64,000 bases of DNA from a virus. Location of the stretch: IMG/VR virus record IMGVR_UViG_3300024261_000014, positions 19,880-83,879 of that record; one strand, 5' to 3'. This document shows, piece by piece, positions 17,766 to 35,853 of this stretch. The first letter of the stretch is position 1. Every line of letters starts with the position of its first letter. Both the position numbers and the translations under genes were made by a program. Under the pieces are notes generated by a model. It made no database searches and was not told the DNA's origin. It saw only the letters and a program-made list of their open reading frames with translations.

Positions 17766-17896
17766 TAATCCATCCACCTACCATGTTTATATAAATGCCA
17801 TAACCTATGTTTAAATATTTCCCACGTTAATCCAATAAATGTATTAGCTGTGTATTCACCTTCTGGCACTTTATAAAAAAATGCTTTCTTTTTCAT
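17765..17896 (-). CDS. small protein (43 aa), absent from the ORF track
   Basis: MKKKAFFYKVPEGEYTANTFIGLTWEIFKHRLWHLYKHGRWMD*; TAATG-coupled to both neighbours. Confidence 0.6.
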   Translation of the reverse strand: MKKKAFFYKVPEGEYTANTFIGLTWEIFKHRLWHLYKHGRWMD

Positions 17897-18303
17897 TATT
17901 TTCCCCACTTACCATTCTTAACTATTGTTGCCATTATACCATAGTTGGACATATCCAAAAAGGCATCTTCTAATGGTTCACCCTCTACGGCATTAACTCT
18001 TCCACCAATCAACAAGGTCTTTACTCTTTGGATTTTGTCATTAATTCTGAAGAACAATCCTGTAAGAGATAGTTTTATATCTTCTTCTGTTTGTAATTGT
18101 GTTCCGACACTTATGTTGCCTGGGCCGTAATCGTGTTGCTTGTGACAGAACAATATGTATTGTTCTCTTTGTAATCTTTTAAATTCTTCAGTCATCTGTG
18201 GCCATTCTTGTTCCATTAGTGTTACAATGTCGCCGTGGTTGCCTGTTAAATAAGAATTTACTTCTTTTTTTGTACTTGATTCTTTTATGTATGTTTCACT
18301 CAT
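17896..18303 (-). CDS. DUF1599 / nucleotide-modification-associated domain 1 protein
   Basis: KQHDYGPGN, RINDKIQR, EPLEDAFLDMSNYGIM. Confidence 0.75.
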   Translation of the reverse strand: MSETYIKESSTKKEVNSYLTGNHGDIVTLMEQEWPQMTEEFKRLQREQYILFCHKQHDYGPGNISVGTQLQTEEDIKLSLTGLFFRINDKIQRVKTLLIGGRVNAVEGEPLEDAFLDMSNYGIMATIVKNGKWGK

Positions 18304-18364: not shown

Positions 18365-18943
18365 TTAAATAATTTTATCGATGATACCATACTCTAAACA
18401 TTGTTTGGCATCTAAGTATGTATCGTTTCTATTCATTCTCTTCCAAAACTTTACATCCTTGTTAGTTACTTCCGCGAGTAACTGATTAATATCTTTTGCT
18501 AATACTTTTAAATGGTCAACACCTCTCATAACATCAGTAGATTTACCAACCTCTACTGCAGAACCCTCATGTACCATCACAGTCGAGTGGTTTGTCATTG
18601 TTCGAGTTCCTGTACCACAAGCTAATAATACTGCTGCAGCACTCATACAAGTTCCAACACAATGTGTATTAACCTTAACATCCATGTTTTGAATATAATC
18701 AACCAACCCCAACATAGCATAAACATCTCCACCATAAGAAGCGATATTAAGATTTATCGCATCTAAGTGTGGATTTACCCTCTGTAGGTAATCCAATTTA
18801 ACTATTGTACTATATAAACTATCAATGTCAAATTCAAAATTCATGTATGTAGTGTTCGTATATGAATTTACACCCCACTCCATCTCTGACATTGCGAATT
18901 GTTCTTCTTTTTTATAACCTTGTTCTGCCATTACTTGCTCCAT
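18365..18943 (-). CDS. clpP: ClpP-like protease subunit
   Basis: IASYGGDV, CMSAAA (Ser), MVHE (His), RNDTYL (Asp), YGIIDKI. Confidence 0.88.
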   Translation of the reverse strand: MEQVMAEQGYKKEEQFAMSEMEWGVNSYTNTTYMNFEFDIDSLYSTIVKLDYLQRVNPHLDAINLNIASYGGDVYAMLGLVDYIQNMDVKVNTHCVGTCMSAAAVLLACGTGTRTMTNHSTVMVHEGSAVEVGKSTDVMRGVDHLKVLAKDINQLLAEVTNKDVKFWKRMNRNDTYLDAKQCLEYGIIDKII

Positions 18944-19365
18944 ATGTTTTTAAGTTCTTTGTCTGATACACCATATTTCATTATGATTGATGTAACCTGT
19001 TCTTTTGTTAATATTTCCAAATGTTGTTCAACCTCTCGTGTACTACATTCAAAGTAATCCACTAAATGTTCCATAGCCCATTTTTCAACTTTTGATTTCT
19101 TCTTTGATTTTGTATATCTAAGAAATGTTCTACCTCTTGGTATTATGTCAACATAAAACTGATACAAATTCTTTGGTTTTAATTCCCAATACTTTTGTAT
19201 TTCATTTACAACCTCTAACCATTCAGATTTCATACTAAGAAATCTATGTACCATATAGTTACTCCAAGTTTTTTTATCAGCATCTGATAAGGAGTCCCAA
19301 TACATAGTATTTTGAACATTAGTAATTTGTTTTATGTGGTCGAATAACGATTTTGTTTTTGCCAT
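18931..19365 (-). CDS. clamp loader small subunit (T4 gp62-like)
   Basis: LFDHIKQI, YMVHRFLSM, LVDYFECS.REV pattern. Confidence 0.6.
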   Translation of the reverse strand: MAKTKSLFDHIKQITNVQNTMYWDSLSDADKKTWSNYMVHRFLSMKSEWLEVVNEIQKYWELKPKNLYQFYVDIIPRGRTFLRYTKSKKKSKVEKWAMEHLVDYFECSTREVEQHLEILTKEQVTSIIMKYGVSDKELKNIWSK

Positions 19366-19415
19366 AATAACCTTTTGATATATATAAATAGAGAATATAA
19401 TCTCTAAAATTTAAT

Positions 19416-20012
19416 TTATTTAAAAGTGTTTCCTGCAACCCAACAAACACTTGTGTACCTTACACCTTTAGTGACTGGTGTAACTTGGTGTCCTGCAAAT
19501 GATGGAAATATAATCAATCTACCTGGTTCTGGTTCAATTATAGTATCATCAAATAATATAAAATCTCCACCCTCATATTCATTATTTAAAAATAATACTG
19601 CAGTCATTTTAACTATACTAAAATCATCTGATGGATGAAAATCTGCGTGTGGTGTGTACCAATCTCCAACTTCATATTTATGACCAGTATATTCATTTCT
19701 ATGAATCCCACCGATATCAAATTTATAATAAAGTTGATTTGCTAGTTTAAATGCGTTCCAATATTTTGTTAATATTTCCTCATCCGTATAGAGTGCAACA
19801 TTTAAGTTACAAACTGCAGGGTCTTTTTTATACTTAGGATTAGAATCTGCACCATAGTAAACATCCTTTTGTTTCTTCACACAATCTTTATCAATTCGCG
19901 TTATAAACTCATCACACTCTTCTTGAGTAATAAAGTTTTTTCTATCCACCCACCATCTAAAATTTGGATTAGGTGTAAAGTTCTGTTCTATTGGTTTATA
20001 CAAAGGTATCAC
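19416..20012 (-). CDS. 2OG-Fe(II) oxygenase (prolyl-4-hydroxylase-like)
   Basis: HAD ... YEGG ... GHQVTPV..G.R. Confidence 0.9.
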   Translation of the reverse strand: MIPLYKPIEQNFTPNPNFRWWVDRKNFITQEECDEFITRIDKDCVKKQKDVYYGADSNPKYKKDPAVCNLNVALYTDEEILTKYWNAFKLANQLYYKFDIGGIHRNEYTGHKYEVGDWYTPHADFHPSDDFSIVKMTAVLFLNNEYEGGDFILFDDTIIEPEPGRLIIFPSFAGHQVTPVTKGVRYTSVCWVAGNTFK

Positions 20013-20604
20013 CTATTATAAATTCTTGAATACAATGTCGTATTCCCTTTGTAACTGGAGTTACTCTATGAAAAAATATTGGTGAGAATACAATTAAAGT
20101 TCCCTTTTCTTGTGGAATTGTATAATACTCCATAGAATGTGGGTCTTGTATAGCAAATTGTGTTTTACCACCCTCATATTCACTTGGGTCTGTTAATTGT
20201 ACAATACACGCTAACTTTCTTAGAGAACTTTGGCCTGCATTAAAATCTGAATGCCAAGTATAAAAATCTTCAGTCTCTCCATTATACTGAATCATTTTTA
20301 TATTGTTTTCTACTTCTTGAATATTAAAGTTCCAAGATAACTGATTCATTACTTTTGCAGATAAAAATAATTTCTGTTGTATGTCTGAATAATCACCCTT
20401 TGCATAATCTCTCATATCTTTATGTAAATACCATTCTTTAACACTTCTAAATTCTAAATTATGGTCTGAACCCATATGTGGTTCTATACAACCTGTTTCA
20501 CCCTTTTCCGTACTTTTAACCCTTTCAATAAACTCATCACATTCTTCTGGTGTAAAGAAGTTTGGTTTTGTCATATACCATTGAAAGTTTTCATTCTTTT
20601 TCAT
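19996..20604 (-). CDS. 2OG-Fe(II) oxygenase
   Basis: WHSD, RKL, YEGG, HRVTPVTKGIR. Confidence 0.9.
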   Translation of the reverse strand: MKKNENFQWYMTKPNFFTPEECDEFIERVKSTEKGETGCIEPHMGSDHNLEFRSVKEWYLHKDMRDYAKGDYSDIQQKLFLSAKVMNQLSWNFNIQEVENNIKMIQYNGETEDFYTWHSDFNAGQSSLRKLACIVQLTDPSEYEGGKTQFAIQDPHSMEYYTIPQEKGTLIVFSPIFFHRVTPVTKGIRHCIQEFIIGDTFV

Positions 20605-21209
20605 CTTAGTGGTTCTCCTATGTAGGTTTCTCTCATTATAAATCTTTCTCCACTTTTAAGTGGTGTAACCATATGGTTCGTAAACGATGGGAACATAAAT
20701 AAATATCCTTGTTTATATGGACATTTAAAAAAATCTTCTTTTTCATTACTAAATGCAAAATGTAAATCACCACCATCAAAATCTTTTGGGTCGGATATTT
20801 GAATCAAGCAAGCTATTTTGTTTAATGATAGTATTCCAGCATCTGTACCCGAATGCCAATTGAAATGGTCTCCCTTTTGATATTCAATAGTTCTAAAATC
20901 CCCTTGATTTCGTTCAATATCGAATTTCCAAACCCTATCATTTGTAATCTTTACTATAGTATTTAGTTTATCTACCAACCAACTATAATCATTCTTTATA
21001 TTACTATTTAATTCTGGTAATAAATATATTTCATTACAATCACGATGGTGAGATAGATTAACTTTTGTAGGCTCTTCTTCTTGTGGATTATATGTTCCAC
21101 CTTGAACCCAACTATCTTCACCCTTAACTTTTTTTACTAAATCATTACATTGTTCTACACTAAGAAATGATAAATGTATAAACCATTTAAAATCATTGTT
21201 TTCTTTCAC
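20601..21209 (-). CDS. 2OG-Fe(II) oxygenase with HxG in place of HxD
   Basis: WHSG, FDGGDL, HMVTPLKSGER. Confidence 0.85.
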   Translation of the reverse strand: MKENNDFKWFIHLSFLSVEQCNDLVKKVKGEDSWVQGGTYNPQEEEPTKVNLSHHRDCNEIYLLPELNSNIKNDYSWLVDKLNTIVKITNDRVWKFDIERNQGDFRTIEYQKGDHFNWHSGTDAGILSLNKIACLIQISDPKDFDGGDLHFAFSNEKEDFFKCPYKQGYLFMFPSFTNHMVTPLKSGERFIMRETYIGEPLR

Positions 21210-21796
21210 CTAAAAGTATCTCCGTGTAACCAACCAACGATGGAATATCTTGAGCCAGAAAGTAATGGTGTAATTCTATGTATTACTAATGGATTAAAAA
21301 TAATTACACTCCCCTTTTTTCTTGTACCCTTAACAAAACTATCACTATCTTTGGTTGTTAATGCAAACTCTAAATCTCCACCATCATAATCATCACCATC
21401 TGATAATTGAACTATAACACTTAATTTTCTCGTTGATTCATCACCTTTACCAAAATCTGGATGCCATCCATACCCATCACCCTTTACATATTTTAATAGT
21501 TTAAAATTCTCGTAAGAATCCCAATCAATATCGTAATTGAAATGTAGTTTATTAGCAACCTTAGTGAGATTTAATATTTTATCAGTAATTTTACTACTTT
21601 CTATTTGGAACTCTGTTGCTTTTCTGTAATCTCTAACCTCACTACCACTCAAACCAACAAGTTCAGCTCTACTACCATTGGTATTGATTGTGTGTTGAGA
21701 TTCACCAAAACTTTTATTTTTAATAAAATCTATTTCTGAATCACTTAGAAAGTTTTCCTTTTCAATATAATACTTAAAACCATTATTTTTTTTCAT
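21206..21796 (-). CDS. 2OG-Fe(II) oxygenase
   Basis: WHPD, RKLS, YDGGDL, HRITPLLSGSR. Confidence 0.9.
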   Translation of the reverse strand: MKKNNGFKYYIEKENFLSDSEIDFIKNKSFGESQHTINTNGSRAELVGLSGSEVRDYRKATEFQIESSKITDKILNLTKVANKLHFNYDIDWDSYENFKLLKYVKGDGYGWHPDFGKGDESTRKLSVIVQLSDGDDYDGGDLEFALTTKDSDSFVKGTRKKGSVIIFNPLVIHRITPLLSGSRYSIVGWLHGDTFR

Positions 21797-21812
21797 ACTT
21801 ACTCTTTAAGGT

Positions 21813-21863
21813 CCTTTTGGTGGTAAGTTATGCACCACCACCACCTTTTGGTGGTAAGTTATG
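21813..21863. repeat. 20-bp perfect direct repeat (21813-21832 and 21844-21863) at the 3' end of the Hint gene
   Basis: CCTTTTGGTGGTAAGTTATG occurs twice, 31 bp apart. Confidence 0.9.
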
Positions 21864-23375
21864 AACTAATATATCACTTGAAAAATAAGTATCAATATCC
21901 TCTACATCTAATGAATAGAAAGTTTCATCGGTAGTTACTTCGACTGTTGATGTTACTTCAATAAGGTTACCATCCTTATCCATTAGTTCATCACCAACTT
22001 CAATTTCAAATGCTCTAAGGAATTTATACTCATTTGCTCGTTTTACAAATATCATCCCCATCCAACCAAACTTATAAGTATCATTTATTATATAATGTTC
22101 TGGTTGTACATTAGAAGATACCTCAAGTACAACTGAACCACTCGAAACACTATTGGTTAAATCTGTTGATGAATATGCTGCAAAATCGTGGTCACTTAAA
22201 CTCATTCCAACTGGTTGATATGATTTAACCACATCACCAACTTCTACATCTTGTATTTGTTTAGTACTACCATCATACATACGAATTAAACTTCCACTCG
22301 GTGTTGTAGTACCTCTATTTGCAACCAGTTTCCACTTATACCAATCATTATCTATAGATGAACTTACACCTGTAGGTGGATTTATTTGTATGTATTGTGG
22401 ACTATAATAAGAACACAATACTTCTGTATGTTGTGGTGTGAATAATATATATGCTCTACCAGTCCCTAAGTATTTATTTCCATTACCATCTAAACTACCA
22501 GAAGATGGAATAAATTTTTCTGGATAAGTAGATATACCAGTACTCGTCTCGATATCATACCAATATGTCATACTGGTGTGAACGCGCTCTTTATAATCCG
22601 AATTTGATTCCCAAGTTTGTTCAACTCCATCCGCATCTGTATAGGTAGATGAGTATATATTTCTTTGTTCTGCATTAGTTATATATGAGTTAAAACTTAT
22701 ATTGAATGGACTAACTAATAATGAACCATCTTCAGTTTTAGATTTTAAAACAAAATCTGGCCAAGTTCCTACTCCACGATTAGCTGCAATTGATGATGAA
22801 GTAAAACCATCTATAAATGTCTCACCAACATTTGCACTCTGAAGTATAGTTCTAAATTTAGTTTTATCCATAGAACCAGTAGCCATTGTATATAATGTAT
22901 CATCTGCTCCGTAACCATTTGGTGTATCAACGAAAAGATGAAATTTACTTGAAGATGCCTCTACCCGAGAATTAACATATGGTGCTGAACTATCATAAAC
23001 AAAAGAAGAACTTATGTTATGATTAGCGAAACTTGCGGATATACTTGAAAGTTTAGTTTGTCTTGGATTTTGCATATCTGCCCAAGTAGAACCATAAATA
23101 TTTACACTACTATAACTTTGTGTAACAGCATATTGTGCAATTCTATCAAAGAAATCCGAACCTTGTACTGATAAAGGTATCTGTACACTTGGATTTGTAT
23201 TAAACTCAAATATTTTTGTATCATTACTACCACTCTCAATAGTAAAATCATATGCACCAATAAATGCTGAATAACTATGATTTGGCCAATCTCCTGCACT
23301 ACCTGTTATGTAATCACTAATTTCTTTTACTTTAGCGTTTACATCTGATTTTTGTGTATAATTTACTATACTCAT
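21828..23375 (-). CDS. ATP-grasp-like region plus C-terminal Hint (BIL-like) domain protein, copy 1
   Basis: Hint at 21858-22307: TTPSGSLIRMYDGSTKQIQDVEVGD ... FYSLDVEDIDTYFSSDILVHN; N-terminal YDF..E.N, DK..FR, PDFVLK, EKFI. Confidence 0.75.
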   Translation of the reverse strand: MSIVNYTQKSDVNAKVKEISDYITGSAGDWPNHSYSAFIGAYDFTIESGSNDTKIFEFNTNPSVQIPLSVQGSDFFDRIAQYAVTQSYSSVNIYGSTWADMQNPRQTKLSSISASFANHNISSSFVYDSSAPYVNSRVEASSSKFHLFVDTPNGYGADDTLYTMATGSMDKTKFRTILQSANVGETFIDGFTSSSIAANRGVGTWPDFVLKSKTEDGSLLVSPFNISFNSYITNAEQRNIYSSTYTDADGVEQTWESNSDYKERVHTSMTYWYDIETSTGISTYPEKFIPSSGSLDGNGNKYLGTGRAYILFTPQHTEVLCSYYSPQYIQINPPTGVSSSIDNDWYKWKLVANRGTTTPSGSLIRMYDGSTKQIQDVEVGDVVKSYQPVGMSLSDHDFAAYSSTDLTNSVSSGSVVLEVSSNVQPEHYIINDTYKFGWMGMIFVKRANEYKFLRAFEIEVGDELMDKDGNLIEVTSTVEVTTDETFYSLDVEDIDTYFSSDILVHNLPPKGGGGA

Positions 23376-23413
23376 TAACTTCTCCTAATGATACTTTTAT
23401 TCATATATAAATA

Positions 23414-23833
23414 TCATATTTTTACATTATAGTTACTATTTAGGAACATCTTCTGTGCTGATTTATTCCAACTATCTGATTGTGCCCACCAAGAATCCCA
23501 ATCTTGGCAATATCTATGTAGTGAATTAACAATCTCACCACCTATACCTTTATTTCTATATTTAGGATTTACATAGATGTTACATATTTCCTTTGTTTCT
23601 GTATTTAACCAACCCCAACCTTGTATCATTTGTTGTGGATTAAATACTACAAACTTCCAACCATTGTCTAATCTGATTTTTGCTTTAGGTAAATCCCACA
23701 TATCATCCCACTTAATTATTGAATTAAAGTAGTCTATCTCATATTGTAAATTATATAAGGTACACTCATCATAATCAAATGATGGACATAAATCAGATAC
23801 TTCCGCATCTTCCCTATTGATGTTAAATAACAT
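23414..23833 (-). CDS. GNAT family acetyltransferase
   Basis: IYVNPKYRNKGIG (motif A), NKSAQKMF; probable start MLFNIN. Confidence 0.85.
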   Translation of the reverse strand: MLFNINREDAEVSDLCPSFDYDECTLYNLQYEIDYFNSIIKWDDMWDLPKAKIRLDNGWKFVVFNPQQMIQGWGWLNTETKEICNIYVNPKYRNKGIGGEIVNSLHRYCQDWDSWWAQSDSWNKSAQKMFLNSNYNVKI

Positions 23834-23975
23834 CTTCAACACCTTTACCATCAGTTACACAACCATCTCTAACAACTTCGGTATCTTTTATTGTCTGTAC
23901 TATCTCATCACATTTTTCGTGTGATAGGAATGTTGGTATTTGAATTGAGAATTTAAATGCTTTATTTTCCCCCAT
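23823..23975 (-). pseudogene. truncated N-terminal fragment of a 2OG-Fe(II) oxygenase (50 aa)
   Basis: MGENKAFKFSIQIPTFLSHEKCDEIVQTIKDTEVVRDGCV.. matches the N-termini of the four neighbouring oxygenases. Confidence 0.7.
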
Positions 23976-25509
23976 GTCCTGGCGCATTATGAACTAATAT
24001 ATCTGATGAAAAGTATGTATCAATATCTTCTACATTGAGTGAATAAAAAGTTTCAGTAAGATACTTCTCTTCCACTGCAGTGACATCAATCCAATTACCA
24101 TCTTTATCAAATAATTTATCATCCACTTCTACCTCATAACCTTTTCTAAACTGAAAGTATCCCAAACCACCCCTATCCATATAGACTCCTGCTAATTGTG
24201 GAATCTTATAAGTATCATTTATCAAATAGTATAAATTTACTTCTTCTGAATGTACATCCACAACAACTGAACCACTTGCAAAACTATCACTTACATCTGT
24301 AGAACTCCAACTTAAATAATTCATATCACTATCTGGCATTCCCAATGAACCAGAACCACCTGGTTGATACGATTTAACTACATCACCAACCTCTACATTT
24401 TGTACCAATTTAGTACTATTATCATACATACGAATTGTTGCACCATGTGGTGTAGATGGGCCTTGGTAGGGTTTTAATGTCCACTCGTACCAATCATTAT
24501 TCAGAGATGAACTTACACCTGTTGGGGCGTTTAATAATGAAAACTTACTATTATAGTAAGTACCAAGTGTAATTACTTTTTCGGGTGTTAATAATTGTAC
24601 ACTTCTACCATTACCTATGAATTTTCTTGCACCATCATCACTACCTGATGAAATAATATAATCCTCTACATAATTACCCGTTCCATCTTCCACATCTATA
24701 CCATAAAAGTGTTGCATACTCTCTGTGAATGGTGTACCCACACTCCAATTTACTTCATTTCCATCAGCATCTGTAAAAACACTTCCGGTTAGCTCTCTTA
24801 CTTCTGCACTACTGATGTATGAATTAAATGAAATCGAACCATCAGCTGTAACCATAAATGATGCATGTTTAGCTAAATCTTTTAAAACATAATCTGGATA
24901 ATCACTAACCCCTTTATTTGCTGCTATTGAAGCTGAATTAAATGCCCCAATTAAAGAATCACCACCAATTGGTGATGCCCCAAGTATAGTTCTAAAACTT
25001 GTTTTAGTAAATGAACCACTTGATATCTGATACAAAGTATCATCCGTGTTACTTGGTGAAGCTACGAATACATGGAAACTCCCCGAATTTGAAGCAGTTC
25101 CTCTTTTTGCTAAGTATTGTGCTTGGTCTGTATAATTAAATGATGAACTAATATTATATTGAGCAAAACTTGCAGATATTGTAGGTTGTGTTGCAGTAGG
25201 TGGATTATATGTTCCAAATTGAAAACTACCATATACTTGTACATCTGAATAACTTTGTGTTGAGGCATATTGTGCAATATCATCATATATGTTTCCATAT
25301 AGACTACTCATCTGAGTACTATTGATTGCAGTATTCATCTCAAATACCTTTACATCATCACTACCACTTTCAATTGTAAAATCATAACACGCAAGTATTC
25401 CTGCGTAAGATGAATCAGGCCAACCACCAGCACTACCTGTAATGTAATTAGATAGTGATTCTAACTTCGTTTCTACATCTGATTTCTGACTAAATATTGT
25501 TATTGACAT
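23962..25509 (-). CDS. ATP-grasp-like region plus C-terminal Hint (BIL-like) domain protein, copy 2
   Basis: Full-length paralog of 21828-23375; Hint at 23986-24456 ends FYSLNVEDIDTYFSSDILVHN-APGHGGK. Confidence 0.75.
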   Translation of the reverse strand: MSITIFSQKSDVETKLESLSNYITGSAGGWPDSSYAGILACYDFTIESGSDDVKVFEMNTAINSTQMSSLYGNIYDDIAQYASTQSYSDVQVYGSFQFGTYNPPTATQPTISASFAQYNISSSFNYTDQAQYLAKRGTASNSGSFHVFVASPSNTDDTLYQISSGSFTKTSFRTILGASPIGGDSLIGAFNSASIAANKGVSDYPDYVLKDLAKHASFMVTADGSISFNSYISSAEVRELTGSVFTDADGNEVNWSVGTPFTESMQHFYGIDVEDGTGNYVEDYIISSGSDDGARKFIGNGRSVQLLTPEKVITLGTYYNSKFSLLNAPTGVSSSLNNDWYEWTLKPYQGPSTPHGATIRMYDNSTKLVQNVEVGDVVKSYQPGGSGSLGMPDSDMNYLSWSSTDVSDSFASGSVVVDVHSEEVNLYYLINDTYKIPQLAGVYMDRGGLGYFQFRKGYEVEVDDKLFDKDGNWIDVTAVEEKYLTETFYSLNVEDIDTYFSSDILVHNAPGHGGK

Positions 25510-25527
25510 AAGGTTCTCCTATATATA

Positions 25528-26232
25528 TTATAAATATCTCTCATATAAATTTTTGGTAAATAATTCGTTAGATAAAACTCCAGCGTGGTTGCCACCAACT
25601 GCCTCATCTTCCCAACACCCAAGATATTCATCTATAACATTTGTTAGTAATCTAATTCCTTTATTTTCCAAATAATTCTCAATCAGTAATTGATTTCTGT
25701 ATAGATTGTCATTATCATATTCATCGTTCTGTAAATTTACAAGTGAATCGTGAGCTAACAACCCATCATCAGTTTTCCAATAATCCCATTTACCATCAGG
25801 CTTAAAAGAGCATTTCCTACCATCTAATGTGGTGTACTCTCTCCTATGTGGATACGTATATAAAACAACAATTAAATCTGGTTTTAAAATTTCGGTATAT
25901 GATAGAACTGCTCTACTAATTGTATCATTAGATATTCCTTGAATACCACAATTAATATGTGAGTGTTGAATTTCGTTTGCTAATAAATGTGGCCATGTTT
26001 CCTCATTTCCTACACCTACACCCAATGTATGACTGCATCCAAAAGTAAGTAACTTAGATTTTGATGAAAAATAAGTTTCTAAATCATCTCCCCTAAATCC
26101 AAGTTCATTAAATGTATATCCACCAACTACTCTACCAGATTTATCTCCACCGACAGTTTTATGTGTTTGATTCTTTCTTGATTTTAAATCATCAAATATA
26201 TCAAACTCTTTATGAGTCCAGTGCGGGTTCAA
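25528..26232 (-). CDS. SGNH-hydrolase-like phage protein
   Basis: FNELGFRG, FGCSHTLG, NCGIQGISN, HAG. Confidence 0.7.
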   Translation of the reverse strand: MNPHWTHKEFDIFDDLKSRKNQTHKTVGGDKSGRVVGGYTFNELGFRGDDLETYFSSKSKLLTFGCSHTLGVGVGNEETWPHLLANEIQHSHINCGIQGISNDTISRAVLSYTEILKPDLIVVLYTYPHRREYTTLDGRKCSFKPDGKWDYWKTDDGLLAHDSLVNLQNDEYDNDNLYRNQLLIENYLENKGIRLLTNVIDEYLGCWEDEAVGGNHAGVLSNELFTKNLYERYL

Positions 26233-26467
26233 GACCTGTTCCCTTTAACATCTCGGTTGGTACTTGTCCACAATTACCACAACTAAATACTTCAATTGGA
26301 ACTAATCCTTCTTGACCATTCGGTGACATTATTGCAGATATCCTTTTTATAATCGTTGATGTTATAAACAAATAATTACCACACGCCTGACAATTTAGTG
26401 TATCTGCTTTACTTAAATCTAATTTTTGTTGTGGTTTATTTATCGGTTTTTGTGCTTTCATATTCAT
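26210..26467 (-). CDS. small Zn-ribbon protein
   Basis: CQACG ... CGNCG. Confidence 0.65.
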   Translation of the reverse strand: MNMKAQKPINKPQQKLDLSKADTLNCQACGNYLFITSTIIKRISAIMSPNGQEGLVPIEVFSCGNCGQVPTEMLKGTGLEPALDS

Positions 26468-27387
26468 TTTACTTTTCCTATTATCTCAACAAACATTGCC
26501 ATAGCATTTATTTCTTTATCCACTACTACTGCATCACTTTGTTGATATTGACTTAATACTAAAATACATTCTGCGACATGTCCTCTACCCCAATCATCGA
26601 CTGTATCAAACAACAACCTAAACATATCACTAAAGTCTGTAACTTTGGAATCTGCTAATAATTGTCGAATGTTCTTGAATGCATTCTTCTTATCTTGAGT
26701 TTTCAAGATTTCTAAAACTTCTAACTTGTAATCGTTTTGTGTACTCATCGCTTCATCTATAACGAGTTTCTCTTTTACTACCTGTCTCTGAGCAGCATTG
26801 ATTACTCTTCTGATATCGGGATAACCACCATTCACTATCGTTACGATATCATCTACTTTTGCATCTACCGATTCTTTCTGTAAGATTTTCGACATATGCA
26901 TCGCGACTTGTTTTCTATCGGGTGGTATAATCTGAAAGGATTGACATCTTGATTGGATTGGGTCAATTATTCTTTCAACATAATTACAAGTTAGGATAAA
27001 CCTACAATGTTTTGAAAATGTTTCCATTAGATTTCTTAATGCTGCTTGTGCATTTGGTGTAATGTAATCACACTCATCTAATATTATAATCTTCATCTCT
27101 GAAAATCCAAGTGTTGATGCAAAATTCTTTACTTTATCACGAACTACATCTACACTATTCTCATCAGATGCATTAATATATAAATAATCACAATCTATAT
27201 TATTAACGAGTAATTTAGCGAGAGTGGTTTTACCTGTACCTGCACGTCCATAAAGCAAAAGGTGTGGTAAATCGCCACTCTCCAAATACACTTTGACTTT
27301 ACTTTTGAGATGTTCATTCCCAATGTAAGTGTCAAGTGATTGCGGCCGATACTTTTCTACCCATAAGGTATTTTTAATTTCTTCCAT
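26464..27387 (-). CDS. clamp loader large subunit (RFC / T4 gp44-like AAA+)
   Basis: WVEKYRP, GRAGTGKT, INASDE, LDECD, SRC. Confidence 0.95.
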   Translation of the reverse strand: MEEIKNTLWVEKYRPQSLDTYIGNEHLKSKVKVYLESGDLPHLLLYGRAGTGKTTLAKLLVNNIDCDYLYINASDENSVDVVRDKVKNFASTLGFSEMKIIILDECDYITPNAQAALRNLMETFSKHCRFILTCNYVERIIDPIQSRCQSFQIIPPDRKQVAMHMSKILQKESVDAKVDDIVTIVNGGYPDIRRVINAAQRQVVKEKLVIDEAMSTQNDYKLEVLEILKTQDKKNAFKNIRQLLADSKVTDFSDMFRLLFDTVDDWGRGHVAECILVLSQYQQSDAVVVDKEINAMAMFVEIIGKVK

Positions 27388-27388
27388 A

Positions 27389-27949
27389 CTATTCCTTTAT
27401 TGCATCTTCTTCTAAAAATATCTGAACACTCCATCGAATACCAGATGTAATTTCATTTACCCAATGTAAATGTTTATCTGCTATCCAAACATACCCAGCA
27501 TCTTGTTTCATTGTTCTAACACCATCGTTAGTTTCAAATTGTAATTCTCCACCCTCATATTCACCATACTCTTTATCAGATAATTGAATACCAATCGTAA
27601 AACATCTCTTCCTTAGAATTTCACCATCAGTACCTGTCATAACATCATCTATATGTGGTTTAAAATAACAACCTTTACTATAGTGACATATTATCATTGA
27701 GTAACCAAGATTATCAATGTTTAAATCTAAAGTATTTGTCCAATCTTTAATCCTATCATAAACCCAAGATATATCATAAGGTGAATTACCCCAAGGCAAA
27801 GCATCTGATAACATTTTACTACCAACTTTTTCATATTCGTTGTGGTAGACATCAACTACTCTAACTTTTAATCTAGCATATGATTTTATTTTTTCACATT
27901 CTTCTTTACTAAATAATCTTTTTTCTATTAAAGTTTTTTCCATATCCAA
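27389..27949 (-). CDS. 2OG-Fe(II) oxygenase
   Basis: PHID, YEGGEL, HWVNEITSGIR. Confidence 0.85.
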   Translation of the reverse strand: MDMEKTLIEKRLFSKEECEKIKSYARLKVRVVDVYHNEYEKVGSKMLSDALPWGNSPYDISWVYDRIKDWTNTLDLNIDNLGYSMIICHYSKGCYFKPHIDDVMTGTDGEILRKRCFTIGIQLSDKEYGEYEGGELQFETNDGVRTMKQDAGYVWIADKHLHWVNEITSGIRWSVQIFLEEDAIKE

Positions 27950-29175
27950 ATCGGTTCACAAAAAGTTTTATCTTTTGTCTTTTCCGCCAGTTCCCTTGTC
28001 TCATCTTTGAATCTATCTTCTGCTGCAGTTCCTGCACCACCACTATTTGGTCTTTTTGCCATTTCCATTCCAATACAACCTTGATACTCTGAATCAGTAA
28101 ATGTTGATACAAAATCATTCATAGGATTACAAATCTCTAACCATTTCTTACCATGAGAATTTAATCTCTTTTGTTTTGCTCCACTACTCGCATAAACATC
28201 ACTTATATTCACTAATAAATATCCACCACTTTTGATAGAACCCCATAATTTTTTAATAGTTGTCTGTAAAAATTTATCATTCCACTCATCAATAGTTTTG
28301 TATCTTACCCAACTTTGAGTATCATCATAACTATATCTCTCAACTCCAAAATATGGTGGTGATGTAAAGACAGTATCAAACATATCTTTATATTGTTCAA
28401 AATCTACATCTTCTGCTGGTGATTCTAAAAACTCTGAATCTTTATCAACCTCGAAGAACATATTTCTGTGTTTTTCGTAGAACTCTTTTTGTTCTCTATA
28501 GAGTGGATGGTTTTCTTTTCGTGGGTCTATCCCAAGATAATATTTACCACTCTCACTACCATAGAATCCTGCTAATCTATCTCCCCAACCTGCAGAGAAA
28601 TCTAATATGTTCTCACTACCCAACTTATCATAGAGTACTTTTGCAACATTAGGTTTAAATTGAGAACAAATATACTTTCTCAAACTTAACATAATCCTAA
28701 GATTACCCGCAGTAATTTTTGGTAACTTCAAAGTATATGCAGCACCCATAAGTGATGTCATATATTTTTCTGTTTCCCAAGTTCTCTTTGGACCTGGTGC
28801 AATTGTTCCATCCACACTCCAACGATTTACTTGTTGGAAGAAATTACTGGCAGCATTACCTATGTTAACTCTTCTAAAGTATTGTTGTTTACCCTCAAAT
28901 TCTAAACCATATCTGTATGCAGTTCCCTCACGAGCAAACCACTCTCCCTCTACCAAAATTTCATTATGTCTCATACCCTTTAACTTCATTAAAGCTTTGT
29001 AGGCATCATCCTCTGAAATAGTGGCATAGGGAATCTCATAAGTCATTGCTACTTTAGCAAGACTTTCTTTGACATCATCCTTTTCGAATGTTTCTTTGAT
29101 ATACTCCCATTCTTTCTCATCTATTTCAAGATAAGGAGTCATACCTTTAAATTTATCAAAATATTCTAAATACAT
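27928..29175 (-). CDS. amino-DNA methyltransferase (SPPY type)
   Basis: ILDFSAGWGDR (SAM binding) followed by FTSPPYF. Confidence 0.85.
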   Translation of the reverse strand: MYLEYFDKFKGMTPYLEIDEKEWEYIKETFEKDDVKESLAKVAMTYEIPYATISEDDAYKALMKLKGMRHNEILVEGEWFAREGTAYRYGLEFEGKQQYFRRVNIGNAASNFFQQVNRWSVDGTIAPGPKRTWETEKYMTSLMGAAYTLKLPKITAGNLRIMLSLRKYICSQFKPNVAKVLYDKLGSENILDFSAGWGDRLAGFYGSESGKYYLGIDPRKENHPLYREQKEFYEKHRNMFFEVDKDSEFLESPAEDVDFEQYKDMFDTVFTSPPYFGVERYSYDDTQSWVRYKTIDEWNDKFLQTTIKKLWGSIKSGGYLLVNISDVYASSGAKQKRLNSHGKKWLEICNPMNDFVSTFTDSEYQGCIGMEMAKRPNSGGAGTAAEDRFKDETRELAEKTKDKTFCEPIWIWKKL

Positions 29176-33114: not shown

Positions 33115-35853
33115 TTAAAAATCAATAGTTAATCCTATGTTTGCATATCTTGGTGTTCCAAGAAATACTTCAGAATTATGAGCTAAGTGAAGTTTATCAC
33201 CATACCCATTGTATTGACTATTATCAACTGCATCTTGTACATAAACTTCATCAAGTGCGTTAAAGATGTGACCTGTAATAGTCAAATCTAAACCAGCAAT
33301 ACTTGGAAGTTTGTAAGATGCGTGTAAATCAAGTTTTGAGTAACCAGGAGCTTCCCAAACTTGTGTTCTATCTGCAACTCCATCAGAATCCACTTCTCTT
33401 GAACCAGGACTCCAATCTGCATAGTTCTTATCATATACATTGTAAAGTGCTTGTACTCTCAATCCCTTAATAGGTTTAAGTGTTACACCCAATATATAAG
33501 ATGATTGTGGTTGGTCACCAACAAATAACCCATCAAGTGCATATGCATATTCAGTAGTTTGATAACCAATTACTTGGTTGTCATCGTTATATTGAGATTC
33601 TTGGTAAGTACCATTGGCATCACCATCGAACTTCCAACCACCGAAAGAAGCAATCAAATCAAGTTCTACCATTTCGTGTGGTAATACTTTTACTTCAACT
33701 TCTGTACCTCTATGTTTCTGATTAACACCTCTTAAAAAGATTACATCAGTATCACCTGAATCTCCTTGACCCGTGTCAACATTACGAGTAAGGTTTCTAT
33801 CTTTCCAATCTGTGTTATAAGCAGATACTTTCACGGCAACTTTATCGTTTGCATATCCAACACCAACTTCTGTTGATAAGAATTTCTCATTGTCTGGGTC
33901 GGATGCGACCGTACCAGAATAATCAATTACATTATCAAGAATTGGTGCTTTTTCCACATATCCTGAATTTATAAAAGTAGTAACACCATCTAACCATTCA
34001 TAGTGTACTCCACCTTTAACTTGATATGATGAAATAGCATCAGCAGTAATTTTCTCGTTTTCTACTGAAAAATGGTCTTGATATGAATATTTAATAGATG
34101 ATATTCCACCCATTCCATATACATTTAGATTATCTTTCGTGTAGTTACCTTGAACAAATCCACCTAACCAATCGACAGTAGTAGTGTTATGATAAGCAAT
34201 AATATCACCTAACCCAACAACTTTTCCATCTGGTGCATTGTCATCAGCAAAATCAACATAGTAATCACCACCTAATAAATCACGAACTTCACGAGCGTGT
34301 TCTATTTCAGCAGTTCTCCAATCGATACCAGTTTGAAATTCTAAATCTTCATTAACTTTATAATTTAATTTAGAAATTAATCCATATGTATCTTGTCTGT
34401 TGATTGAGTTTCTAAGAATACCTGTAGAACGATGGTCTGTTTCAGAATAATCAGCATCGATATTAGTACGATTCTGTTCAATCTCTCCATTCCAATCCCA
34501 CATCCAAGGCGAACTTGAATACCAAGCATTATCTGCTACGGCTGGTGTTCTCATTACACTACCATAAGTTCCTGTTCCACCACCTGAACCACCACTCCAA
34601 TAAAGAACTGATGATAATTTAGTTTTATCATTTATCTCTAAAAAGTGATTTAGATTCACTAATGGTTTATGGAAGAAATTCTCCCTTTCATTAAGAAAGT
34701 TTGAATTTTTTCTTTTGGTTGTGTTTGCTCCATACATATACCAATATTGTTCTCCAGTATAGTCGGAACTAACTGGTGCCCAATTTTGACTAAAGAATCT
34801 ACCAGCTTCAGTTTCGAATTTGTTACCCTCTGCAAAAGCATCAGTATCATATCCGTCAATATCACTTGCTAACTCTTGTGAGTAAGTAGCAATATTCTGT
34901 TTGTATAGATTTTGTCCGTGTCTTTGTGGTGCACCGATTGCGTACAACTCGAATCGTTGTTTATCGGATACTGCATAAGAACTTCCAAAATAATAAGCCC
35001 AAGCATCTGTCCAGTTTCCATCAATGATACCATCACCAGTCTTACGAACAATTGTTCCAGCCAGTGCAAGTTTATCACCAATCAAACCTGAATTGTAGTT
35101 AATAGTAGTTTTAATAAAACCACCATCTCCTGCTTCTTGTTTGAACTTACCACCCTTTTCGTATTTAGCAGGGTCTGTAATGATATTCATAGTTCCACCA
35201 ATAGAAGGTGTGGCAAGATTTACAGCTGATAGTCCTCTTTGTAACTGAATTGATTGAGCAGCATCTGCAACCCCATCCCAATTACTCCAATAAACCCATC
35301 CGTTCTCCATATCATTTTGGGGAACACCATTAATCATCACCGCAACATTTCTTTGGTTAAACCCTCGTACATTAATACGAGCATCACCAGCACCACCACC
35401 TTGTTGAGTTGCATATACACTTGGTGTAGTATTCAAAGCCATTGGAACATCTTGACTACCAAGTCTAAGTTCCATTTCTTCTTTACTAACCATTGAATAA
35501 GCAACAGGTGTTGTTGCAACAGCTCTTGAAGCCAAAACTTCAACATCTGTTAGAGTAAGAGCATCAATTGCCAAAGCAATATTCACTTTTACTTCACTAT
35601 CACCCACAACAACCTCTTTAGATTGAGATGAGTATCCTATGAATGAAGCAGTAATAGTATAAGTTCCAGCTTCTACTGAAATTGTAGTAAGACCTGTCTC
35701 GTTAGTAACACCACCGAGTTCAGTTCCCTCTACCACTACATTTGCTCCAACCAAAGGGTTATATTCAACATCTTTAACATCAACAACAATGGATTGAGCG
35801 AACAATCCTGTCATCAATACGAAAGATGCTATTAGTTTACGATATATATTCAT
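33115..35853 (-). CDS. TonB-dependent outer-membrane receptor with N-terminal carboxypeptidase-regulatory-like domain
   Basis: Signal peptide, PLVGANVVVEGT..G, plug motifs (RINVRGF, MINGVP, GGTMNIIT), C-terminal NALD..Y..GTPR....GLTIDF. Confidence 0.92.
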   Translation of the reverse strand: MNIYRKLIASFVLMTGLFAQSIVVDVKDVEYNPLVGANVVVEGTELGGVTNETGLTTISVEAGTYTITASFIGYSSQSKEVVVGDSEVKVNIALAIDALTLTDVEVLASRAVATTPVAYSMVSKEEMELRLGSQDVPMALNTTPSVYATQQGGGAGDARINVRGFNQRNVAVMINGVPQNDMENGWVYWSNWDGVADAAQSIQLQRGLSAVNLATPSIGGTMNIITDPAKYEKGGKFKQEAGDGGFIKTTINYNSGLIGDKLALAGTIVRKTGDGIIDGNWTDAWAYYFGSSYAVSDKQRFELYAIGAPQRHGQNLYKQNIATYSQELASDIDGYDTDAFAEGNKFETEAGRFFSQNWAPVSSDYTGEQYWYMYGANTTKRKNSNFLNERENFFHKPLVNLNHFLEINDKTKLSSVLYWSGGSGGGTGTYGSVMRTPAVADNAWYSSSPWMWDWNGEIEQNRTNIDADYSETDHRSTGILRNSINRQDTYGLISKLNYKVNEDLEFQTGIDWRTAEIEHAREVRDLLGGDYYVDFADDNAPDGKVVGLGDIIAYHNTTTVDWLGGFVQGNYTKDNLNVYGMGGISSIKYSYQDHFSVENEKITADAISSYQVKGGVHYEWLDGVTTFINSGYVEKAPILDNVIDYSGTVASDPDNEKFLSTEVGVGYANDKVAVKVSAYNTDWKDRNLTRNVDTGQGDSGDTDVIFLRGVNQKHRGTEVEVKVLPHEMVELDLIASFGGWKFDGDANGTYQESQYNDDNQVIGYQTTEYAYALDGLFVGDQPQSSYILGVTLKPIKGLRVQALYNVYDKNYADWSPGSREVDSDGVADRTQVWEAPGYSKLDLHASYKLPSIAGLDLTITGHIFNALDEVYVQDAVDNSQYNGYGDKLHLAHNSEVFLGTPRYANIGLTIDF

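Follow-up and report, generated by a model that had tools for sequence, protein, structure and literature searches.

A predicted permuted ATP-grasp ligase fused to a one-sided Hint domain and a short proline-containing tail in an oxygenase–GNAT module of uncultured marine phages

We analyzed a 64,000-nucleotide stretch of viral DNA (positions 19,880 to 83,879 of IMG/VR record IMGVR_UViG_3300024261_000014), hereafter the window, in which two paralogous genes on the minus strand, fusion gene 1 (21828–23375) and fusion gene 2 (23962–25509), each encode a 515-residue protein that joins a predicted circularly permuted ATP-grasp domain to a BIL-type Hint domain and a tail of a few residues. The pair had been singled out in a preliminary description made from the letters alone; the two proteins are indeed paralogous, with 49% identity over their full length (E = 7e-161) and the same architecture. 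Across related marine phages, the fusion stands in a nearly fixed order with a GNAT acetyltransferase and a tandem array of 2-oxoglutarate (2OG)-Fe(II) oxygenases, and its first Hint domain is followed by a conserved proline-containing peptide. Tentatively, we read this peptide as a substrate that the Hint domain may release and that the neighboring enzymes may tailor.

An AlphaFold2 model of residues 1–355 was confidently folded (predicted local distance difference test, pLDDT, 84.4; predicted template modeling score, pTM, 0.85). Searching the PDB with Foldseek returned 36 matches at E ≤ 0.001, and the top ranks among the matches listed, at a probability of 1.0, were taken by YjfC/YgiC, glutathione and homoglutathione synthetases, and glutathionylspermidine and trypanothione synthetases. 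When the model was compared with 48,161 chains using VIA-align, ranks 1–10 all belonged to the permuted clade (Z 10.2–13.2, 233–267 residues aligned), with rank 11 at Z 6.9. Classical ATP-grasps (LysX/ArgX, RimK, Ddl, PurK) scored Z 4.6–5.9 and aligned solely from residues ~84–89 onward, as predicted for a catalytic hairpin permuted to the N-terminus. On these models, the N-terminal domain (residues 1 to ~350, positions 22326–23375 in gene 1) is a circularly permuted ATP-grasp of the glutathionylspermidine-synthase/glutathione-synthetase type, which bears out the assignment first made for residues 1–355 from motifs.

An alignment of 68 homologues contains 12 invariant columns (S26, D43, E57, N59, S113, S168, K171, P206, D207, E286, G293 and S294) at a mean column identity of 30%, with K211 kept in at least 90% of the sequences. 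These invariant positions at such low overall identity, together with the confident fold, argue that the domain is real beyond chance. The order in which D43 and E57-x-N59 are followed by K211, within the strand PDFVLK, and then by E286, within EKFI, is one that we read, from the motifs, as fitting a permuted ATP-grasp. The motifs named in the preliminary description are present in the two window proteins (DKTKFRTIL/TKTSFRTIL, PDFVLK/PDYVLK, EKFI/EDYI, and VHN followed by LPPKGGGGA/APGHGGK); the N-terminal spacer had been miscounted and reads YDF-x11-FEFN rather than x8–10.

As single sequences, the first 355 residues of both fusion proteins gave no Pfam match. The families GSP_synth, CP_ATPgrasp and GSH_synth_ATP were not matched at E ≤ 1 by the window proteins or among the families listed for the 68 members, and PF03738 was unmatched across the whole 83,879-base source record. 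Sub-threshold echoes were seen among the 68 members for CPSase_L_D2 (5/68), Dala_Dala_lig_C (2/68) and a RimK-like PHROG (1/68), and the Protein Atlas led from the ligase domain to ATP-grasp_3, TTL/YheCD and GshA clusters at 0.90–0.93. Because the curated permuted-ATP-grasp models do not match, the ligase part is a new family with a permuted ATP-grasp fold rather than a member of a named sequence family. It shares fold and permuted element order with glutathionylspermidine synthase (GspS)/trypanothione synthetase, YgiC/YjfC, eukaryotic glutathione synthetase and the fungal Cp1B of the E-64 pathway, and it has a conserved pattern of Asp...Glu-x-Asn, Lys and Glu; by analogy with these enzymes it would carry out ATP-dependent carboxylate–amine ligation. 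It differs from them in being 7–12% identical in structural alignments and in being always fused to a Hint domain, in 78 locus genes and in the full-length homologues, no search having been aimed at shorter forms.

The second part of the fusion, which the preliminary description had called a Hint domain ending in His-Asn, could be identified by both sequence and structure. The C-termini of the two proteins gave sub-threshold Hint matches in Pfam, and a phmmer search with residues ~355–507 reached many proteins with a canonical Cys...His-Asn Hint at their C-terminus, at E values of 1e-12 to 1e-18. The AlphaFold2 model of residues 341–515 (pLDDT 87) best matched Tetrahymena BIL2 (6y75) and a Clostridium thermocellum BIL (2lwy), with E values of ~1e-9 and target-normalized template modeling scores of 0.77–0.82, followed by inteins and Hedgehog; in gene 1 the domain spans residues ~355–506 (21858–22313). 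At its end the His is invariant and the Asn is kept in at least 90% of the sequences, with a Pro at +2 that is invariant or nearly so. Counted by locus, His-Asn stands in 75 and His-Ser in 2 of the 77 loci for which downstream sequence is available.

To compare catalytic positions, a sample of 24 first Hints, 8 second Hints from longer relatives and 12 canonical C-terminal Hints were placed in one alignment. The Cys-1 column of the first Hints holds Ser or Thr in 19 sequences and Ile, Met or Leu in 5, so that the nucleophile is not conserved, and the block-B His is found in none of the 24. All 8 second Hints have both Cys-1 and T-x-x-H, and T-x-x-H also occurs in the 12 canonical Hints. The first Hint is thus a one-sided BIL-type domain that has lost the N-terminal acyl-shift machinery and kept the C-terminal His-Asn; since it has neither a conserved Cys-1 nor a block-B His, only the C-terminal reaction, Asn cyclization, is plausible for it. 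In type A BILs, as a passage of an earlier report describes, C-terminal cleavage proceeds through Asn cyclization and the freed amine is able to attack an upstream thioester (PMC4031507). Fold, C-terminal His-Asn and a non-nucleophilic +1 residue are common to the phage domain, type A BILs (2lwy; Tetrahymena BUBL BIL2, 6y75/6tmm) and pretoxin-Hints. The phage first Hint is set apart from type A BILs by the missing Cys-1 and block-B His, and from BIL and pretoxin-Hint proteins by a cargo of 4–9 residues in place of a toxin or ubiquitin-like domain. We also considered the pretoxin-Hint module of polymorphic toxins and rejected it, as no toxin domain follows His-Asn, just those 4–9 residues or further Hints; Pfam PT-HINT scored 20.1 bits on the window protein, below its cut-off of 27.7. 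The extra Hints of the longer phage relatives are canonical and match the BIL 2lwy at E = 7e-21.

What follows the first Hint is short and patterned. The N-terminal family motif was found in 107 stored proteins, 103 of which also carry the motif at the end of the first Hint. In these 103 proteins and the 78 locus genes, His-Asn is followed by [L/I]-P-[P/K/G/R/S]-[K/R] and, in some cases after one further residue, by a stop; alternatively, the same 3–5 residues run into the Cys of a further canonical Hint, of which there are up to three more. The norm of the family is therefore a tail of 4–5 residues, [L/I]-P-x-[K/R]. The residues after His-Asn in 31 other proteins with C-terminal Hints are variable.

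The two window tails, LPPKGGGGA in gene 1 (21831–21857) and APGHGGK in gene 2, had been read in the preliminary description as Pro/Gly peptides, and this part of its proposal did not hold, because the Gly runs arise from a 31-nt duplication and a 4-nt deletion. In gene 1, a 31-nt tandem duplication at the end of the gene (21806–21863, minus strand), whose 20-nt core repeats the codons for HN-LPPKG, turns LPPKGP* into LPPKGGGGA*. LPPKGP* is the ending of the 92%-identical homologues in loci L001–L004, and the second, out-of-frame copy of the duplication encodes the HN-LPPKGP ending. The duplication is probably no assembly error, since the protein cluster of gene 1 holds 47 member sequences on 37 contigs. 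In gene 2, a 4-nt gap relative to L019 deletes the stop after LPRK and extends the frame to APGHGGK*; its nearest relatives (P0003, L006 and L019) end in LPRK. By these comparisons both window tails are atypical and result from recent insertions or deletions, and the conserved tail is just [L/I]-P-x-[K/R].

A sister subfamily of metagenome proteins (P0266, P0268 and P0269, ~715 residues) has ~200 residues after His-Asn, with a Gly/Trp/Tyr-rich stretch and then an end that resembles Peptidase_S74. The match to this endosialidase-chaperone family is weak (E 0.026, below cut-off). The cargo behind the Hint therefore differs among lineages.

The tail does not stand alone in its conservation. The family counts 331 proteins in marine metagenomes at E ≤ 0.001. 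A scan of IMG/VR yielded 205 stretches that encode a relative, from which 80 loci were kept, 78 of them with the fusion gene; 77 loci had enough room downstream and 69 upstream, and open reading frames (ORFs) were labeled by BLAST and iterated hidden Markov models built from the window proteins. An oxygenase is the next downstream gene in 71/77 loci, and 74/77 have one or more within eight genes downstream. Where 5 kb or more of downstream sequence was available (30 loci), those eight genes include no oxygenase in 3 loci, two in 6, three in 9, four in 10 and five in 2. On the other side, the GNAT lies directly upstream of the fusion in 60/69 loci and within three genes in 65/69, and an SGNH homologue lies at most three genes upstream in 24/69. 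The resulting order is nearly fixed: flanked by the two clamp-loader genes, it reads GNAT–fusion–two to five oxygenases, preceded in part of the loci by the SGNH gene, and in the locus gene maps the clamp-loader-A-like gene comes after the oxygenase array. The linkage to oxygenases and GNAT that the preliminary description had relied on in a single phage is thus strongly conserved among homologues.

Optional genes of this island encode radical SAM/SPASM proteins (15 loci), B12-radical SAM proteins (5), AMP-binding fragments (7) and sulfotransferases (7). A sulfotransferase (PF17784) is next to the fusion in the deep-branching loci L060 (11382–12583), L079 (1475–2071) and L058 (3725–4327); in L060 an Asp/Arg-hydroxylase-like cupin comes after it, and L058, unlike L060 and L079, retains the array of prolyl 4-hydroxylase (P4H)-like oxygenases. 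In 40 loci, a family of ~213 residues without a Pfam match closes the island before the clamp-loader-A-like gene (for example, L006 9717–10340); it is absent from the window. The four largest unlabeled clusters of ~200-residue neighbors are not oxygenases by hhalign (probability ≤ 3).

Tail and oxygenases also vary together. Across the 77 loci, 74 combine His-Asn and Pro at +2 with oxygenases, the other 3 lack the Pro tail and P4H-like oxygenases alike, and none is mixed. On a FastTree phylogeny of the ligase domains, L008 (tail DFGK, no array) adjoins L010 (tail IPGKD, two oxygenases), and L060 and L079 (ending VHS, no P4H-like array) branch deep; this placement is suggestive of co-loss of Pro tail and oxygenases in two separate events. 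The GNAT is missing in L008, in L060 and in three loci with a Pro tail.

In the window, four tandem oxygenase genes follow fusion gene 1, all on the minus strand and all above the cut-off of 2OG-FeII_Oxy_3 (PF13640), with E values from 4e-14 to 4e-6: oxygenase 1 (19416–20012, E 4.3e-14), oxygenase 2 (19996–20604, E 8.9e-12), oxygenase 3 (20601–21209, E 4.3e-6) and oxygenase 4 (21206–21796, E 1.3e-13). A fifth gene above this cut-off, not included in the preliminary description, lies at 27389–27949. The iron site is well kept across 248 aligned oxygenases, with HxD in 230, HxG in 17, and the distal His and Arg in 247. All 17 HxG proteins keep the distal His and Arg; they comprise oxygenase 3 of the window, in which His-x-Gly stands for His-x-Asp, and 16 locus homologues (L001–L004, L018, L025, L037, L061, L062, L067–L069, L072–L074 and L080). 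Replacement of the carboxylate ligand by Gly or Ala is the iron-site signature of Fe/2OG halogenases, and oxygenase 3 is a possible phage halogenase of this type. A profile of oxygenase 4 orthologs matched PKHD-type hydroxylases and prolyl 4-hydroxylases in the PDB. All oxygenase C-termini have the form G-[D/N/E]-x-F-[K/R/V], an ending that is not common to the GNAT, the SGNH protein or other families. A complex prediction of Hint plus tail with oxygenase 4 (score 0.00, mark 0.32) weighs neither way on binding.

The remaining members of the module, likewise named in the preliminary description, were recognized by Pfam or profile comparison. The GNAT (145 residues, 23414–23851, minus strand) matches Acetyltransf_1 at E 2.7e-8, scoring 34.5 bits where the cut-off is 20.7. 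The SGNH/GDSL-like hydrolase (234 residues, 25528–26232, minus strand) has no Pfam match as a single sequence; S67 and H216 are invariant in its alignment and N94 and G71 nearly so, and its 25-sequence profile matched GDSL-type structures, best 4rsh at E 6.9e-8.

From this arrangement we derive a model in which the first Hint would cyclize its final Asn and free whatever comes after it, which in the main clade would be the peptide [L/I]-P-x-[K/R]. The oxygenases would hydroxylate, and perhaps halogenate, this Pro/Lys peptide prior to or following its release, the GNAT would acetylate an amine of it, and the ATP-grasp domain would activate a carboxylate, in the simplest case the peptide C-terminus as in the solved relatives, and join it to an amine. 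In the multi-Hint relatives, the Asn that ends Hint 1 and the Cys that opens Hint 2 enclose the tetrapeptide; two self-cleavages would excise the peptide, and, given the mechanism outlined for type A BILs in a passage of PMC4031507, the freed amine might attack the thioester. We hold this tail-as-substrate model as a tentative preference, short of an even chance. The further step, that the fusion is a single-use, self-releasing factory for a ribosomal tetrapeptide of the [L/I]-P-P-K type, hydroxylated, perhaps halogenated, acetylated and ligated or cyclized into a signal, an inhibitor or a polyamine conjugate, we consider rather unlikely as a whole. The hints of a peptide made on the ribosome and modified after translation (RiPP) are purely comparative, namely that the [L/I]-P tail is conserved and that it was lost together with the oxygenases.

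Several observations weigh against a tail that is released and tailored by an active ligase module. The indel-altered window tails, of which APGHGGK retains Pro at +2, argue against a strict need for any residue beyond that position. A subclade (P0126, P0132, L060 and L079) ends in ...VHS, without Asn and tail, and keeps ligase and Hint, so that the fusion has a role independent of the tail. One 50-kDa protein per four-residue peptide would be a costly route. The loci are related phages with a shared gene order, which means that neither the 71/77 adjacency nor the 74/3 table counts independent cases, and both show stability of a block rather than independent associations; with just two loss events, the co-variation is suggestive and no statistical proof. 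Unrelated accessory genes gather in the island as well, among them QueC-like (10 loci) and PfkB kinase (5) genes. As to the ligase itself, no Pfam ATP-grasp model scored above threshold in the window proteins or the 68 members, and hhalign of the family against Escherichia coli YgiC was null (probability 0.07), with a one-sequence profile that is too thin to exclude remote homology. The roles of D43, E57, N59, K171, K211 and E286 as Mg/ATP contacts are ones we presume from the motifs.

Alternatively, the ligase may make a small-molecule or peptide–polyamine conjugate unrelated to its own tail, with the GNAT and oxygenases acting on that metabolite and the Hint serving only as a scaffold or as an auto-processing switch by which a short pro-tail is removed, a proposal that we regard as somewhat unlikely. 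The VHS-ending subclade fits it, and the close structural relatives are all small-molecule or short-peptide ligases; YgiC is annotated in RefSeq as a peptide–spermidine ligase, and YgiC and YjfC are termed peptidylpolyamine synthetases in a passage of PMC12568646. The sulfotransferase, AMP-binding and radical SAM genes of the island are typical of metabolite tailoring, and a metabolite-like cluster with a halogenase and 2OG hydroxylases is described for cyanophages in part of PMC7824862. A metabolite substrate would nevertheless leave three things unexplained: the conservation of His-Asn and [L/I]-P across ~30% identity, the loss of the Pro tail coinciding twice with that of the oxygenase array, and the retention of the Hint in all 78 locus genes and all full-length homologues examined. 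The same tail–oxygenase co-variation is unaccounted for if the module instead modifies host or phage proteins, for example of the translation or replication machinery, by Pro/Lys hydroxylation, acetylation and the addition of residues in the style of RimK or tubulin–tyrosine ligase. This we judge distinctly unlikely. The best solved relatives of the oxygenase profile are protein prolyl 4-hydroxylases and PKHD-type hydroxylases, the island, with a clamp-loader gene on either side, belongs to the early replication module, a weak match to a RimK-like PHROG is seen in one member of the family, and phage GNATs and ATP-grasp peptide ligases have been suggested, in a section of PMC7824862, to modify host proteins. 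The fold, however, is nearest to the glutathione/glutathionylspermidine synthetase clade, with RimK-type enzymes at Z ~5 over a partial range, and a search for Pro-rich repeat proteins along the coding strand of the 84-kb record found none, weak evidence given that the record is an estimated 41% complete.

It is also conceivable, and in our estimate highly improbable, that the fusion is a non-enzymatic virion or structural protein in which the ATP-grasp-like fold is a relic and the Hint a degenerate remnant. The sole PHROG match is to a family labeled 'virion structural protein' (55/68 members), and the extension of P0266, P0268 and P0269 weakly resembles Peptidase_S74; the PHROG match, however, is confined to the Hint part (residues 373–506), the ligase domain keeps 12 invariant enzyme-like residues (D, E, N, K, S), and the gene sits in the replication module and not among structural genes.

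Release of the tail for tailoring, if it occurs, would resemble two peptide systems. Borosins such as OphMA are enzyme–precursor fusions of RiPP biosynthesis, and the likeness, if the mechanism holds, lies in a tailoring enzyme with its own C-terminal substrate peptide that is used once. By this analogy the phage fusion would differ in that release is by a built-in Hint and not by a separate protease, the enzyme is an ATP-grasp and not a methyltransferase, and the peptide has 4–5 residues. SICLOPPS is an engineered intein arrangement that cyclizes a peptide set between C-intein and N-intein. The multi-Hint phage relatives have the same topology, Hint1(His-Asn)–IPPK–(Cys)Hint2, whereas the phage gene is natural, its domains are complete and not split, and the window genes have a single Hint. 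Among phage clusters, the closest in outline is a cyanophage gene cluster in the jumbo-phage survey of Iyer et al. (2021; PMC7824862), in which several 2OG hydroxylases accompany an amino-acid halogenase and which the section on this cluster interprets as secondary-metabolite or polysaccharide tailoring. A hydroxylase array with a halogenase on a phage is common to that cluster and to this island; the core described in that section consists of carbamoyltransferases and a HemK-like methylase, and ATP-grasp or Hint domains are not mentioned there.

The full-text literature search (Hint domain with ATP-grasp in phage, in the main text of papers) found no description of the ligase–Hint fusion with its module, in agreement with the preliminary view that the architecture was undescribed. 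The text of a pelagimyophage genomics paper (PMC7029224) contains none of 'oxygenase', 'ATP-grasp', 'acetyltransferase', 'glutathionylspermidine' or Hint domain. The parts are of known kinds (ATP-grasp ligase, BIL/Hint, P4H-like oxygenases, GNAT); the fusion and the fixed module are new to the literature searched. A pattern scan of prokaryote genomes (one per species, 185,579 species) found no relative, with patterns taken from the Hint end, which a stand-alone ligase could escape. A tblastn search of INPHARED (50,697 records of deposited phages) with gene 1, P0126 and P0052 as queries left the ligase part unmatched, and gene 1 and P0126 had no match at all; P0052 matched via its Hint domains alone, to helicase inteins and an 'intein domain protein'. 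Judged from these sequence searches, the family is known solely from uncultured marine T4-like phages.

The two window copies appear to stem from separate phage lineages whose modules recombination brought together, and not from an in-place duplication, because gene 2 is directly followed by an oxygenase remnant. This remnant, 45 codons of an oxygenase 5' end (23840–23975, minus strand), overlaps the end of gene 2 and is ended by a stop just inside the annotated GNAT ORF; its translation, which begins MGENKAFKFSIQIPTFLSHEKCDEI, corresponds to the first part of the oxygenase encoded after the L019 fusion gene. One of the joined modules reads SGNH–gene 2–oxygenases, the other GNAT–gene 1–oxygenases, and the true GNAT start is probably a Met later than 23851.

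The island is flanked in the window by a gene for a clamp-loader large subunit (AAA+; 26464–27387, minus strand; Pfam AAA E 2.8e-19, DNA_pol3_delta2 E 3.8e-12) and, at 18931–19365 on the same strand, by a gene resembling the small clamp-loader A subunit (Phage_clamp_A E 1.5e-4, below cut-off), with BLAST homologues in 55/80 loci. Between the SGNH gene and the large-subunit gene lies a gene for an 85-residue CxxC...CxxC protein (26210–26467, minus strand), which has a BLAST homologue in 62/80 loci and faint zinc-ribbon Pfam matches. Predicted promoters and terminators over 18800–27600 were not above shuffles (44 versus 54.5 and 3 versus 2.3, respectively). Around the island, DNA modification genes are hinted at by a 135-residue protein (17896–18303, minus strand) with a match to DUF1599 ('nucleotide modification associated domain 1') and by a 415-residue protein at 27928–29175 that weakly resembles a DNA methylase.

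The source record comprises 83,879 bases, ~41% of a complete genome by estimate, with a G+C content of 29–38% and nearly all genes on the minus strand. The family-B DNA polymerase encoded on it finds its matches in T4-like phages, with 43% identity to the best deposited one; a pelagimyophage origin was dropped on account of this low identity. Other window genes encode an AAA+ clamp loader, ClpP, a PD-(D/E)XK nuclease, a class II ribonucleotide reductase and, between the reductase and the DNA polymerase (33115–35853, minus strand), a 912-residue SusC-like TonB-dependent receptor with CarboxypepD_reg and Plug domains. We suspect a host among the Bacteroidota because this receptor is encoded, and the receptor itself suggests phage-encoded nutrient uptake.

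Even if the tail is not the substrate, these data define a new, predicted clade of permuted ATP-grasp ligases together with a natural Hint that would be capable of C-terminal cleavage only. If the tail is released and tailored, the fusion would represent a new logic for making small modified peptides, with enzyme, release device and substrate in one polypeptide, and abundant ocean phages would run natural-product-like chemistry early in infection. Were the single-use factory real, it would open a new way of making natural products on the ribosome, the first of its kind for marine phages.

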